Notes: generated by a model not told the origin, from the sequence alone. 64,000 nt of DNA from an uncultured Acidobacteriota bacterium (GCA_963805975.1 CAWDVR010000001.1:1097577-1161576); one strand, 5' to 3'; counted from the stretch's first letter, positions 1,350-16,300 are shown. Translations and numbers: made by a program.

Positions 1350-4300
1350 AGCGGCGCCGCCCCGCGCGATTTGCACACGGGCGGCCAAGGCCTCGAGGGT
1401 GGGCGCCTCGAAGAGCGCGCGCACCGGCAGCTCGGCGCCGAACACGTCGCGCACCCGCGAGAGCACGCGCACCGCGAGGAGCGAATGCCCCCCGAGCTCG
1501 AAGAAGTCGTCCAGGACGCCGACCCGCTCGCGGCCGAGCACGTCGCGCCAGATCTCGGCAAGATTCTGCTCGAGGCCCGAGCGGGGGGCGACGAAGGGAG
1601 TCGACACGGTGTCGCGGCTGGCGGCGGCGGGCAGGGAGTGGCTCAGGGAGCGGCGGTCGACCTTGCCGCTCGCCGTGAGTGGCAGTGCGGCGAGGATGAC
1701 GAAGCGGGCCGGGATCATCCAATCCGGCAGCACCGCGCGCAGGTGCTCGCGCAGCTCCCGTCCACCCGGCGCCGGGTGCCCTGCACGGGGCACGCAGACG
1801 GCGACGAGCTGGCGATCACGGCCGGGCGTCACCACGACGGCGGCCTCGCGCAAGGCCGGGTGGGCGAGCAGCACCGCCTCGATCTCCCCCGGCTCGACGC
1901 GGAAACCGCGTACCTTGAGCTGGGCGTCGAGGCGGCCCAGGAGCTCCAGGCTGCCATCGTGGCGACAGCGGGCAAGATCGCCGGTGCGGTAGAGGCGCGC
2001 TCCGGCTTCGCCCGCGGGATGGGGCACGAAACGCTCGGCGGTCGTCCCCGGCCGCCGCCCGTATCCGCGGGCGAGGTTGCGGCCGGCAATCCCGAGCTCG
2101 CCGGGGACCCCCAGCGGCACCGGACGCAGGGAGCGGTCGAGGAGATGGATCCCGGTGTTGGCGACCGGCTTGCCGATCGGCGCGTGCACCGGCCAGCTCG
2201 CCGGCGGACCGCTGAGCTCGTGGTCGGTCACCACGTGGCTCTCGGTCGGGCCGTACTGGTTGCGGAGCCGGCTGCCCCGGCGCGCGCAGGCCGCGACCAC
2301 GGCCGGCGTGAGGGTGAGCTGCTCGCCGGTCGAGATGATCTCCTCAGGCATCCCCTCCGCCTCGCCCCGGGCCCAGATCTCGCACAGCTCCTGGAGCAGG
2401 ACGACGGGCAGCACCGCGAGCTGGACCGGGCTCGCGGCGAGGTGCCGGGCGAGCGCCCGCGGATCTTCGCGCAGGGCCTCGTCGGCCACCTGCAGAGTGC
2501 CCCCGGCAGCGAGCGCCAGGGCCATCTCGTAGACGCTGACGTCGAACCCGACCGCGGCGAGCAGCAGCACGCGCCGTGGCACGGGGAGCGCCGCGAGATA
2601 CCACTCGACGAGGTTGACCAGGGCACGGTGAGGCAGGCCGGTCCCCTTGGGCCGTCCGGTCGAGCCCGAGGTGTAGATCCAGTAGAGCAGGCTCTCCCCG
2701 TCGAGGTCGTGCAGCGTTGCCACCACCGGGCCGCCGTGAGGCTCGGCGAGCGAGATCCGCTCTCCCTCCCAGCCGCCGAGCCGGTCCGCGAGGTGATCCT
2801 GGGTCAGCACTCGGGCTACCGCGCTGTCCTCCAGCATGCCCAGCAGGCGCTCCTCGGGGTAGGTCGGATCGAGGGGCAGGTAGACGGCGCCGGCCGCGAC
2901 GGTCGCCAGGAAGCCGGCCACCAGCTCGAAAGAGCGCTCGCCCAGCACTGCGACCGGCACCTCGGGCCCGGCGCCGCGTCCGCGCAGCGCGCCGGCAAGG
3001 AGCGCCGCCCGGTGGTCGAGGAACCGACGGCTCCAGTGTTCGGTGCCGTGCATCACCGCGATGGTCTCCGCGGCTCTTTCCGCCGCGGCGGCGAAGAGGT
3101 GGCCGAGCGAAGGCGCCGTTCCGGCTCCGCGGTCGCAGGCGGTGTCGTTGAGCTCCCCTTGCAGCTGGTGCCTCTCCGCCGCCGTGAGCATCGGGACGCC
3201 GGCGAGCGGGAGTGCCGGATCCCGCGCGACCGCCGTCAGGAAGGCCTGGTAGCGCTGCATCAGGCGAGCGATGCTGACGGCGTCGAAAAGGTCGGCGTCG
3301 TAGGTCACGCCGCCCACCAGGCCCGTCGGGACCTTCCACAGGTGAAGCTCGAGATCGAAGCGGGTGGAGCGCACCTCGAAGCTCGCCGGGCGTAGCGTCA
3401 GCCCCGCCAGCTCGAAGGCACTCTGCGGTGCGCTCTGGAAGGCGAACATCACCTGGAAGAGCGGGTTTCGCGACAGGTCCCGCCCGAGGGCGAGCTCCTC
3501 GACGAGCTTTTCGAACGGCAGCTCCTGGTAGGTGTAGGCGGCGAGGGCCGTCTCCCGCACCTGGGCGAGCAACTCGCGGAACGGCAGCCGCGGCCCGGTG
3601 TCGCCGACCAGCACCAGAGTGTTGACGAAGAAGCCGATCAGGCCTTCGATCTCGCTGCGGCCGCGGCCGGCGACCGGGGTGCCCACCGGGATTCGCGGCT
3701 GCATGGTGGCGCGGAAGAGCGTGGCGTGGAAGCCCGCGAGGAGGGTCATCGCGAGGGTGGCGCCCTCGCGCCAGCCCACGGCCTCGAGCGCCGCGACGAC
3801 GTCGGCCGGCAGAGCCCAGGTATGCAGTGCGCCGCGGAAGGCTTGGAGGGTGGGTCGTGGTCGGTCGGTGGGGATGTCGAGGGTGGGGGGTTCGTTGCCG
3901 AGTTTTTCGCGCCAGTAGGCGAGGGGGATGTCGAGGGTAGGACCGGTGAGGTTTTGGCGTTGCCAGAGGGCGTAGTCGGCGTATTGGACGGGCAGGTGGG
4001 GAAGCAGCGTGTCGAGGTCTTTGCCGGGCGAGGTTCCGGGTCGGTAGAGGGTCGAGATCTCGCGATGGAGCAGTCCGATGGACCAGCCGTCGGCGACGAT
4101 GTGGTGGAGGGTGAGCAGAAGAGTGTTCTCGTGCCTCCCGCGGGCGAGCAGGCGGGTGCGCAGCAGCGGTCCGGTGGCGAGGTCGAAGGGTCGTGCGATC
4201 TCGCGGGCGACGAGGCGGCGGGCTTGGTCCTCGCGCGCGGGGTCAGGCAGGCCCGCGAGGTCGACGACCGGGATAGGCCAGGGGGCGGGAGGATGGAGGA

Positions 4301-13300: not shown

Positions 13301-16300
13301 CGCCCTCCTGGCGGGCCAACGACCGCAGGGTGCCGCCGAGGGCGGGTGACAGTGCGAGGGGCTGCAGTGCGCCGCGGAAGGCTTGGAGGGTGGGTCGTGG
13401 TCGGTCGGTGGGGATGTCGAGGGTGGGGGGTTCGTTGCCGAGTTTTTCGCGCCAGTAGGCGAGGGGGATGTCGAGGGTAGGACCGGTGAGGTTTTGGCGT
13501 TGCCAGAGGGCGTAGTCGGCGTATTGGACGGGCAGGTGGGGAAGCAGGGTGTCGAGGTCTTTGCCGGGCGAGGTTCCGGGTCGGTAGAGGGTCGAGATCT
13601 CGCGATGGAGCAGTCCGATGGACCAGCCGTCGGCGACGATGTGGTGGAGGGTGAGCAGAAGAGTGTTCTCGTGCCTCCCGCGGGCGAGCAGTCGGGTGCG
13701 CAGCAGCGGTCCGGTGGCGAGGTCGAAGGGTCGTGCGATCTCGCGGGCGACGAGGCGGCGGGCTTGGTCCTCGCGCGCGGGGTCAGGCAGGCCCGCGAGG
13801 TCGACGACCGGGATAGGCCAGGGGGCGGGAGGATGGAGGACCTGGACGGGCTCGCCGGCGCGGGTCGCGAAGGTGGTGCGCAGGGCCTCGTGGCGACGGA
13901 CGACGGCTTCGAGGCTCTTGGCGAGGGCGGCGAGGTCGAGGTCTCCCGACAGCTCGAGCACCGAGGGGATGTTGTAGAAGGCGTTGCCTGGCACCAGGCG
14001 GTCGAGGAACCACAGGCGCTGCTGAGCGAAAGAGAGCGGCAGGTCGCGTTCGCGGGAGACCGGTACGATCGGCGCGGAGGCGAGTCCGGCCTGTTGGCGC
14101 AGCAAGCCGGCGATCTCTCGGGCGAGGGCCTCGACCGTGGGGTTTTCGAACAGTGTCCGGATCGGCAGGTCGACGTGGAAGAGGTCGCGGATGCGGGAGA
14201 TGGCGCGGGTGGCGAGGAGCGAATGGCCCCCCAGGGCGAAGAAGTCGTCCTCGGCTCCGACGGTCTCGACGCCCAGCACCTCGCGCCAGATCTCACCGAC
14301 GGTCTGCTCGATGCCGGTGCGTGGGGGAAGGGCCGGGGCGGGCTTGGCGGGTCCGGGCTCGAGGTCGCGCAGCAGGGCTTCGCGGTCGAGCTTGCCGCGC
14401 GCGGTCAGCGGCAGCTCGGGCACGAGGCGAAGCGATGACGGCACCAGGTAGGCGGGCAGGGTTTCGGCGAGATGGTCGCGCAGCTCGGTCTCGTGGACCT
14501 CGGCGGCGGGCACGACCCAGGCGAGCAGGCGGCGGTCTCCCGGGGTGATCTCGGGGCACAGCACCACCGCGGCGGCGACCGCCGGGTGGGCCCGCAGCAC
14601 GGCTTCGACCTCGGCGGGCTCGATGCGGAAGCCGCGCAGCTTGAGCTGGCGATCGAGCCGGCCGAGCAGCTCGAGCGTGCCGTCGGGACGGAAGCGGGCG
14701 CGGTCGCCGGTACGGTAGAGGCGCTCGCCGTCGCCGAGCAAGGCCGGCACGAAGCGCTCGGCGGTGGCGGCCGGCCGGCCGTGGTAGCCGCGGGCGAGGC
14801 CGCGGCCGCCGAGGACGAGCTCGCCCGCCACGCCGAGCGGCACCGGTCGCTGCCGCTCGTCGAGGATCAGGGCCGTGGTGTCGGCGATCGGTCGGCCGAT
14901 GGACACCGGGTCGCTCACTTCGGCCGGCGAGGCCATTGGCCAGCAGGCGGCGAAGGTGGTGCTCTCGGTCGGGCCGTAGCCGTTGATCAGACGCAGCCCG
15001 GGAGCGCTCGCGAGCACCCGCCGTACCGGCTCGGGAGCGAGCACGTCCCCGCCCGCGAGGAGCTGGCGCACACCGGTGAGGGAACCCAGCTCGGCCGCCG
15101 CCATTTCGTGGAAGAGGCCCGCGGTCAGCCACAGCACGCTCACCCGATGACGACGCAGCTCTTCACCGATCGCCGCCAGCGAGAGCGGTCCTGGCGGAGC
15201 GATCACCAGGCGCCCGCCGTGGAGGAGCGCGCCCCAGACCTCGAAGGTCGCGGCGTCGAAGCCCAGGGGGGAGTGCTGGAAGAACGTCTCGTGCGACGAG
15301 AGCTCGACGTAGCTCACCTCGCGCAACAGCCGCACCACCCCGCGGTGGCAGACAGCCACACCCTTCGGCCGGCCGGTAGTACCCGAGGTGTACATCGTGT
15401 AGAGCAGGCTCTCGCCGTCCACCGGTCCTGCCGGTCCTCCCTCAGCACCCGGCGCCAGGAGCTCGCCGAACGAGAGAGAAGGCAAGCCCGTCGCCTCGCG
15501 CAAGCCCCCGACGAGCGCCCGCGCTCCGGCGTCGGCGAGCTTCCAGGCCCGACGCTCCGGCGGGTCCTCGGGATCGAGCGGCACGAAGAAGGCGCCGGTC
15601 TGGGCGACGGCGAGGAGAGCCGCGTAGACCTCCAGCCGCCGCTCACCGTAGACCGCGACCGCTGCTTCGGCACCGATCCCCAACCCCCGCAGACGCGCTG
15701 CGCCACGGCCGGCTGCGCGGGCGAGGCCCTCGTAGCTCAGGTGCTCCTCGCCCGCTACCAGCGCCACCCCCTCCGGACGCACCGCCCGCTGGCGGGCGAA
15801 CAGGCTCACCACCGTCTCGCCCGACGATCCGCTCGTCCCCCCGTCCATCGTCCCCGTATCACTCCACTCGACGAGCAACTGCTGACGCTCCGGCGGGGAG
15901 AGCAGTGAAAGCTCCCCCAGGCGTGCCTGTGGCGCCCTCAACAGGCCGGCGAGGAGGGTTTGGAGCTGGCGGCAGAGGCGGCGGACCTCGGTGTCGTCGA
16001 AGCGCTGACGGTCATAGAAGAACCGCAGCAGGAGACCGTCGCGCAGCCCCGCCACCAGGCCGAGGGGAAAGTGGATGCGCTCGAAGGCCCGCAGCCCGGC
16101 GAGCTCGAGGGGCGGAGGCGCAGCGGCCGGACGATCGTCGAGCGGGTAGTTCTCGAAGACATTCAGGGTCTCGAAGAGAGGGCGGTCGCCGGCGACCTCG
16201 CTCCATGCCCGCACCCTGTGGAGTGGGCTCGCCTCGTGGGGATCGAGATCCGCCTGGCGCTCCTGCAGGGCTTGCAGCCAGGGCACCCAGGGCTCGTGGT

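Follow-up and report, generated by a model that had tools for sequence, protein, structure and literature searches.

A stretch of ~2.5 kb, present at 99 % identity in two nonadjacent modules of one giant multimodular NRPS gene, most probably records gene conversion within that gene. Like all of the features described below, the gene is encoded on the minus strand of the 64-kb window that we analyzed (the whole 64,000-nucleotide stretch of DNA). It reads from a candidate ATG at 33449 and runs off the window at position 1 (1–33449; stop map, motif scan, and Pfam), and the minus-frame stop-codon map shows it to be open for at least 11,154 codons. At least 10 modules are encoded in the order C-A-T ×3, C-T, C-A-T-E, C-A-T ×5, C..., and the peptide strings given in a preliminary description of this DNA are correct minus-strand translations. 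That description left the origin of the repeat at "module duplication or gene conversion," of which gene conversion fits; duplication does not, as homologous sequence has been replaced in register and no module seems to have been added. A module duplication repeats whole modules, adjacent or as a whole block, whereas the unit repeated here is A-T-half C. We favor copying and replacement over an added module because the tract is in register, its flanks show ordinary divergence, and the C domains upstream of its two copies are of different subtypes.

The two copies, at 13363–15902 (copy B, upstream in the gene) and 3823–6362 (copy A, three modules downstream), align without a gap over 2,540 nt at an offset of 9,540, with 24 mismatches (99.06 % identity). 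The preliminary figures of ~99 % identity and about 27 differences were therefore close, and the offset is, as claimed, a multiple of 3, so that the copies are in frame. The common run begins at 3823 (TGCAGTGC...) and stops at 6362 (...CCGGCGGGGAGAG), and identity ends within a few bases on both sides, in keeping with the abrupt flank divergence first reported: 60-nt windows beyond the edges are 33–37 % identical on the high-coordinate side and 50–87 % on the low-coordinate side. Across the tract, 17 consecutive 150-nt windows are 97–100 % identical, against 40–76 % nucleotide identity for all other module pairs, whose A domains are 41–56 % identical as protein. The differences are scattered over the entire tract, the widest mismatch-free gap being 257 nt, and 7 kb of nonrepeated sequence separates the copies. 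A self-BLAST of the 64-kb window, which had been suggested as a check, returned the tract pair as the sole match at 80 % or above.

Alignment, Pfam, and the specificity code show each copy to be made up of the C-A linker, an A domain with a Val code, a T domain, and ~230 residues from the start of the C domain that follows. In copy B these are the C6-A6 linker, A6, T6, and part of C7; in copy A, the C9-A9 linker, A9, T9, and part of C10. Pfam matches on the 847-aa unit support this content as originally proposed: AMP-binding at 35–374, AMP-binding_C at 431–504, PP-binding at 534–596, and Condensation matched at profile positions 2–224 of 456. The A6 adenylation domain occupies 14391–15800 (AMP-binding 14781–15800, AMP-binding_C 14391–14612), with its copy-A equivalent at 4851–6260. 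T6, a PP-binding domain with the motif LGGHSL (motif scan and Pfam), lies at 14115–14303 (copy-A equivalent 4575–4763), and the N-terminal half of C7 that falls within the tract lies at 13374–14051, with HHIVADG at 13646 (C10 equivalent 3834–4511; Pfam and 2JGP alignment). The Stachelhaus code is DAFWLGGTFK in both copies, as expected from the Val specificity that had been claimed. Modules 6 and 9 have in common the Val code, the carrier domain, and the donor-side half of the next C domain, from which we predict that the assembly line incorporates L-Val at both position 6 and position 9.

Immediately outside the tract, the two contexts part company. C6, upstream of copy B at 15903–17216, follows an E domain, is DCL-like (Pfam; best PDB matches McyB 8HLK and PvdL), and is 25–28 % identical to other C-lobes. 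C9, upstream of copy A at 6363–7640, follows a Thr-code module and is CmodAA-like, in the class of C2 and C3 (Pfam; best solved relatives McyA and AmbE). These C domains of different subtypes are 28 % identical and are not homologous in register. At the opposite edge, the C-terminal part of C7 directly outside the tract (12696–13362) and its C10 equivalent (3162–3822) are 55 % identical as protein, like other LCL pairs (alignment and Pfam). Discrete near-identity in flanks of ordinary paralogue divergence is what characterizes a conversion tract. In both chimeric contexts the C, A, and T Pfam domains are full length and lie in a single unbroken ORF, and the minus-strand ORF and Pfam together indicate that frame, domain order, and module count have all been kept, as in-register replacement entails.

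In the minus frame, 18 of the 24 differences between the copies are synonymous, at third codon positions, and 6 are nonsynonymous (P = 5.6e-6 in a binomial test of neutral or error-like change). The dN/dS comparison that had been recommended yields ~0.15, with a dS of ~0.026. This pattern shows that both copies have been under purifying selection since the event, each being kept functional, and that the differences are not random sequencing errors; differences that are random by codon position, as expected of an assembly artefact, are not what we find. The clear signature of purifying selection at this dS makes the phrase "caught before divergence" an overstatement. We also considered DGR-like or other targeted mutagenesis and ruled it out, as the differences are mostly synonymous and are not base specific.

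The event would have been a nonreciprocal homologous recombination between paralogous modules 6 and 9 of one gene, three modules apart, in which ~2.5 kb (the C-A linker, the Val-activating A domain, T, and the opening ~230 residues of the C domain beyond it) was copied one way and the resident homologous segment was swapped out exactly in register. The upstream crossover would have fallen where the C domain ends and the linker begins, in a 38-nt island that encodes SPPERQQLLVEW, and the downstream crossover in the PTDRPRP..FRGA stretch of an LCL-type C domain; such islands would already have been shared by the modules, as they encode conserved motifs. The preliminary description had noted a 36-nt string at 6321, 12684, and 15861, and it is indeed present at all three positions, the full exact match being 38 nt. 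By exact-repeat comparison, this SPPERQQLLVEW island lies at the upstream tract edge at 15859–15896 and recurs exactly at 6319–6356 and, in module 7, at 12682–12719; it is the likely crossover substrate. A 56-nt island of module 7 (12575–12630) is identical to copy A at 6191–6246 and one base off copy B at 15731–15786 by the same comparison, a sign that modules 6, 7, and 9 share another mosaic patch. Exact inter-module repeats of 20–56 nt are frequent in this gene. The downstream edge adjoins the conserved PTDRPRP..FRGA motif, which is found in module 8 too; outside the tract, the present sequences have no long identity island at this edge (7 nt are common, followed by mismatches), and by analogy with module 8 the presumed downstream crossover must lie inside the tract. 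Tentatively, module 9 may have been the donor and module 6 the acceptor. A3 is closest to A6/A9 as an outgroup (56 %), and C3 and C9 are paralogues (55 %), a hint that A9 belongs where it is and that module 6 received the copy; we do not rely on this hint because Val-specific A domains cluster together anyway.

The edges of the tract had been equated with the two fusion points of engineered exchange units, an equation that may hold upstream, where the edge is the start of the C-A linker, and fails downstream, where the edge is off the XUC site. The upstream junction, correctly assigned to the C-A linker, begins exactly at L/SPPERQQLLVEWSDT, the linker start, 11 to 12 residues N-terminal of the W in EWSDT, the equivalent of the XU W]-[NATE site; the crossover itself may have occurred anywhere in the conserved island up to this W. 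Calcott et al. (2020, PMC7486941) place a hotspot of natural NRPS breakpoints between C and A, and the upstream edge fits both this hotspot and the permissive "linker + A domain" boundary of the same study. The downstream junction lies 94 residues past HHxxxDG and aligns to ~residue 307 of TycC5-6 (2JGP), and the XUC linker adjoins helix alpha5 (I253–F265 in 2JGP). As the junction is 42 to 54 residues past alpha5, in the C-terminal lobe, it is not the N-lobe/C-lobe (XUC) fusion point that it had been taken for. An XU (A-T-C, with fusion at W]-[NATE) ends at the next C-A linker and includes the whole C domain, whereas the natural tract stops midway through the next C, at ~224 of 456 in Condensation. 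XUC, or XU2.0, units (CAsub-A-T-CDsub) are fused in the four-residue linker between the C subdomains (bioRxiv 10.1101/354670). The tract resembles them in that the N-terminal, donor-side subdomain from the C domain downstream accompanies A-T, but where an XUC has both boundaries in the inter-subdomain linker, the edges here are at the C-A linker, outside the C domain, and at ~residue 307 in 2JGP, so that the acceptor-side lobe's initial part, as far as PTDRPRP..FRGAL, travels as well.

The tract is one data point on where modules recombine, in agreement with "end of C domain / linker + A" at its upstream edge and off XUC at its downstream edge. It is conceivable, though on balance doubtful, that it also marks a naturally portable unit distinct from the engineered ones, made up of linker, A, T, donor lobe, and the first ~55 acceptor-lobe residues, ending just after PTDRPRP..FRGAL, a cassette that works behind both the DCL-like C6 and the CmodAA-like C9. 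Were this true, nature would have shown that an A domain can travel without the acceptor lobe, and a recurrence of the downstream edge in other natural tracts would make it a new fusion site within C domains, validated by evolution.

Conversion between modules is a well-known route of NRPS gene evolution, and the mechanism is not new. A-T-part-of-C transfers have been reported in NRPSs (Götze et al. 2019, PMC7472662). The tracts of Pseudomonas lipopeptide NRPSs in that study (cichofactin A4/A7, jessenipeptin A6/A12) were confirmed by Sanger sequencing; cichofactin A4 and A7 share 1,251 bp at 99.4 %, three modules apart, where "one domain duplicated and replaced the other." Like those tracts, ours is near-identical and sharp edged and joins nonadjacent modules of one synthetase, three apart and with equal amino acid specificity; some of the published tracts also reach through T into the next C, and the published reading is likewise that one module's segment was replaced by another's. 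Unlike the cichofactin tract, the Acidobacteriota tract is twice as long, includes T and ~230 residues of the next C, and begins before the C-A linker, not within the first A-domain helices; unlike the Pseudomonas case, its host belongs to an uncultured lineage for which no sister cluster turned up, among the matches listed, to confirm the event by phylogeny. Internal recombination has also been described as a cause of concerted evolution among NRPS/PKS modules (Medema et al. 2014, PMC4256081). There, too, paralogous domains of one assembly line are homogenised by gene conversion into interoperable, sequence-identical domain sets; that conclusion came from cluster-specific branching in domain trees of related clusters, whereas here we have one discrete tract in a single sequence. 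Of 160 unrelated NRPS loci, 16 (~10 %) contain repeats within a gene that are 400 nt or longer and 90 % or more identical, and one of these loci (L038) has a 3,038-nt repeat at 99.97 % with an offset of 9,534.

Through shared k-mers, an assembler might have placed one module's sequence, or that of a strain variant, inside a second module, in which case only one copy in this form would be genuine. The DNA evidently comes from a soil organism not in culture (HtpG has its best match, at 76 %, in an Acidobacteria MAG, and the runs found are soil metagenomes only), the 38-nt island is common to one edge, and strain variants, too, would differ mainly at synonymous sites. Yet both junctions are in frame and have complete domains, the present flanks of the downstream edge share no k-mer longer than 7 nt, and the 24 differences run along the whole tract, with the 257-nt gap as the largest, as they would not had identical graph nodes been traversed twice. 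The displaced "true" module would need to have vanished from a contig that is 64 kb long or more, and such tracts are common in isolate and long-read genomes, those of PMC7472662 being Sanger confirmed. We regard an artefact as quite improbable. Read data came from 18 soil-metagenome runs (word shares of 0.25 or less), assembled as shallow k=31 contigs. One run from an independent soil sample (X2) has near-identical contigs, 150–200 nt long at 2–3× depth, with alleles of both copies; another (X1) has a fragmentary relative at ~93–97 % identity, and the matches in runs X12–14 are limited to motif-length stretches. No junction-spanning contig at 97 % or above occurs among these short k=31 contigs of shallow soil metagenomes.

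An old three-module duplication (6-8 to 9-11), of which 2.5 kb was kept near-identical by repeated conversion or strong selection, would account for an offset of exactly three modules. The C8/C11 N-lobes are the closest LCL pair (61 %), and the 38-nt and 56-nt exact islands that module 7 shares with modules 6 and 9 suggest more than one exchange. Positional partners, however, are no closer than nonpartners (A7/A10, 42 %; C7/C10 C-lobes, 55 %; T7/T10, 48 %), C6 and C9 are of different subtypes, and the synonymous sites of the tract are near-identical too. As a dS of 0.026 requires recent copying whatever the deep history, this improbable scenario reduces to gene conversion plus an untestable prehistory. 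Less probable still, in our view, is that both modules acquired one A-T-C cassette independently, not from each other but from a different NRPS cluster, either one in the same genome or one reached through transfer. Inter-cluster transfers are documented, for example, from jessenipeptin to virginiafactin (PMC7472662), but here two events with base-identical edges at both ends would be needed, the window holds no other match, and none of the collections yielded an external donor (best 49 %, among the matches listed). Exact scanning of genome_contigs with the 38-mer gave 0 matches, protein-guided scans for an orthologous cluster peaked at 49 % in both genome_contigs and metagenome_contigs among the matches listed, and a 1,667-aa junction-spanning query of a 5.8-billion-protein database gave a best match of 48 %.

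The probable gene conversion between modules 6 and 9 offers a clean, datable case of natural NRPS assembly-line editing, with edges known to the base, in an uncultured Acidobacteriota lineage whose large NRPSs are without characterized relatives. A 2.5-kb repeat at 99 % inside a gene is also a caution for annotators and assemblers. We examined plus-strand coding as well: plus frame 3 is nearly open, with 20 stops in 33 kb, and without a Pfam match it is an antisense shadow frame. Read in that frame, 18 of the 24 differences fall at "first codon positions" beside in-frame stops, an odd mutational signature that is a frame artefact because the minus frame has zero stops. Such high-GC antisense frames produce misleading giant plus-strand ORFs, of which annotators should beware.

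The two copies of the 2540-nt tract, copy A at 3823-6362 and copy B at 13363-15902 on the minus strand, form a gapless alignment, offset by 9540 nt, with differences at 24 of 2540 positions (99.06% identity). The preliminary description had recognized this near-identity, although its count of about 27 differences was slightly high. The shared run starts at 3823/13363 and ends at 6362/15902, and identity drops abruptly on both sides. Self-BLAST of the full 64-kb window returned no second pair at 80% identity or more. When seven units of module size are aligned by codon and scored in 150-nt windows, the tract pair holds 97 to 100% nucleotide identity across 17 consecutive windows, while other module pairs range from ~40 to 76% per window. 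The near-identity of the tract is thus confirmed as real and far beyond chance, and the tract very probably records a recent gene conversion in an orphan acidobacterial NRPS that involved modules 6 and 9.

The NRPS gene lies on the minus strand: one frame there runs without a stop codon from 33464 down to position 1 of the window, at least 11,154 codons, and its candidate start is an ATG at 33449. A motif scan and Pfam give the architecture as C-A-T, C-A-T, C-A-T, C-T without A, C-A-T-E, five C-A-T modules, and one more C. Read in the direction of the gene, copy B (15902 to 13363) spans modules 6/7 and copy A (6362 to 3823) spans modules 9/10. The window has a single E domain, an epimerization-type domain (HHLVMDSVSW; 17301-18640, minus strand) that follows T5 (LGGDSI) and accounts for the longer module spacing there (4605 nt). 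Frame 3 of the plus strand has just 20 stops per 33 kb over positions 1-33400 and consequently holds long ORFs, the largest being 2535 aa (3726-11333), none of which matched a Pfam domain. We rejected plus-strand coding; these ORFs are an antisense shadow cast by the 70% GC gene and a trap for ORF-based annotation of such sequence.

Within the 847-aa unit encoded by the tract, Pfam places AMP-binding at residues 35-374, AMP-binding_C at 431-504, PP-binding at 534-596, and a partial Condensation domain (profile positions 2-224 of 456) at 618-843. The tract opens precisely at 'L|SPPERQQLLVEWSDT' and takes in the last ~10 residues of the upstream Condensation model. With a GrsA-PheA fragment as the ruler for the specificity positions, A6 and A9 both read DAFWLGGTFK, a Val code. 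The content originally ascribed to the tract, a linker, A(Val), T, and part of C, is therefore correct by both Pfam and specificity code. Among the remaining A domains, A1, A2, and A8 are Thr-like, A3 is Val-like, A5 and A7 are Leu-like, and A10 is unassigned.

Module duplication and gene conversion had both been proposed for this tract, and the flanks decide between them. Module duplication is not supported: in register, the sequences upstream of the two copies bear no relation to each other (28% identity between C6 and C9), the 7 kb between the copies is not repeated, and the unit itself is A-T-half C. C6 follows the E domain, is DCL-like, and has McyB (8HLK) and PvdL as its best solved relatives, while C9 classes with C2 and C3, its best solved relatives being McyA (8JBR) and AmbE (7R9X). 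On the downstream side, C7 and C10 share 55% identity over their C-terminal parts, equal to any other LCL pair in the gene, and in modules 7/10 and 8/11 partners are no closer than nonpartners. An A-T-half C unit yields complete domains on both sides only by replacing a resident homologous segment, which argues for copy-and-replace. Gene conversion between paralogous modules fits these data: the A-T-half C of one module would have been copied over the homologous segment of the other, with no module added.

C6 is the only DCL-like C domain. C2 (~29726), C3 (~26498), and C9 (6363-7640), all on the minus strand, form a class of their own, ~55% identical to one another and 25 to 32% identical to other C domains, and each comes after a module whose A domain has a Thr code and whose T domain carries 'GGDSI'. 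McyA 8JBR and AmbE 7R9X are CmodAA-type domains linked to dehydration, a likeness that would point to dehydrobutyrine at positions 1, 2, and 8.

The upstream edge of the tract is also the outer end of a conserved island that encodes SPPERQQLLVEW; the island is exact in module 7 too and has related sequence in every module. Beyond this island C6 and C9 are not homologous, so the crossover probably fell inside it. The other end of the island is a W matching the site 'W]-[NATE' of engineered exchange units fused in the C-A linker (XU); the earlier comparison of this edge to an XU site was roughly right, the edge and the W lying at opposite ends of the island. Calcott et al. found the same boundary to be permissive, and a natural breakpoint hotspot between C and A includes it (PMC7486941; PMC10212144). 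A 36-nt string reported in three places is indeed there, the exact match extending to 38 nt (at 6319, 12682, and 15859). Module 7 is a mosaic on the minus strand: 56 nt at 12575-12630 are identical to copy A and one base off copy B, 38 nt at 12682-12719 match modules 6 and 9 exactly, and a diverged segment with a 7-codon indel splits the two stretches. This mosaic is suggestive of additional short exchanges at the C-A boundary.

The downstream edge falls after '...PTDRPRPTLQAFRGAL', 94 residues past the first His of HHIVADG, and a phmmer alignment places it at chain position 305/306 of TycC5-6 (2JGP). The same alignment sets 'IQYKDFAVWQQEF' against chain positions 251-263, where helix alpha5, adjoined by the subdomain linker, is published as I253-F265 (XUC preprint, 10.1101/354670). 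The resulting offset of +2 residues puts the edge at approximately residue 307, 42 residues past the end of alpha5 and 54 past its start. By this alignment the edge lies within the C-terminal (acceptor-side) subdomain. The proposal that it coincides with the fusion point of exchange units joined between C subdomains (XUC) does not survive: that site is the linker beside alpha5, whereas the tract ends 42 to 54 residues beyond the helix, deeper in the acceptor-side lobe.

Read in the coding frame of the gene, the 24 differences between the copies comprise 18 synonymous third-position changes and 6 that alter an amino acid (binomial p = 5.6e-6 for the synonymous excess); the 6 all lie outside the specificity-code positions. 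The dN/dS comparison called for in the preliminary description gave dS of ~0.026, dN of ~0.004, and dN/dS of ~0.15 (Nei-Gojobori). This synonymous bias is the pattern expected of two functional copies diverging under purifying selection, not of random sequencing error. The event is recent, as first supposed, but the copies have already begun to diverge. Seven of the 24 differences, including 4 of the 6 amino acid changes, lie within ~200 nt (4755-4958/14295-14498) surrounding the A10 motif and the A-T linker.

That the tract was created by misassembly is unlikely, because the junctions are in frame, the differences are dispersed along the tract and synonymous, and the downstream edge is without shared k-mers. 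All public runs with pieces of the window are shallow soil metagenomes. One of them, X2, has near-identical contigs of 150 to 200 nt, and its contig over 5445-5646 matches copy A at 5484 and copy B at 5607 and has a private change of its own at 5533. Both allele sets are thus present in an independent sample, in k=31 contigs that cannot phase them; the contig may be a chimera built from k-mers of both copies, or else a sign that alleles shuffle between them in the population. The window's HtpG is 76% identical to that of an Acidobacteria MAG, and no NRPS relative above 49% identity was among the matches listed from the three collections searched.

Concerted evolution through internal recombination is documented across NRPS/PKS clusters (PMC4256081). 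In cichofactin, A4 and A7 have 1251 bp in common at 99.4% and, like the tract copies, lie three modules apart; they were interpreted as one domain replacing the other, and other published tracts take in T and part of C (PMC7472662). At a cutoff of at least 400 nt and at least 90% identity, we found intragenic repeats in 16 of 160 unrelated NRPS loci. These include 3038 nt at 99.97% with an offset of 9534 on an Acidobacteriota MAG chromosome (L038; 6702-9739/16236-19272), 4.7 kb at 98.1% (L056; 5877-10586/12261-16970), 1.9 kb at 100% (L204; 1044-2980/4218-6154), and 1.5 kb at 98.5% (L043). The first three come from other Acidobacteriota and soil metagenomes, with tracts of 1.9 to 4.7 kb at 98 to 100%, one of them likewise three modules apart. 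Survey tract edges differ by locus, several beginning near the C-A boundary, and none of the mapped tracts shares the downstream end point of ours. The tract is a new example of a known, fairly common process.

Module 4, between T3 and C5 (~21600-23900, minus strand), is C-T only and lacks an A domain; its Condensation domain is complete (HHIVSDG at 23237), and its PP-binding domain carries LGGHSL at 22046. The module may be loaded in trans or skipped. This C-T unit is similar to the following unit at a spacing of 1791 nt. Directly upstream of the NRPS, GC content falls from ~70% to 52 to 62% in an island at 34500-39500 that holds an ArsA-like ATPase (34900-36075, minus strand) and a radical-SAM protein (36930-38864, plus strand). 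A patatin-like phospholipase gene (33465-34529, minus strand) ends 16 nt ahead of the NRPS start codon.
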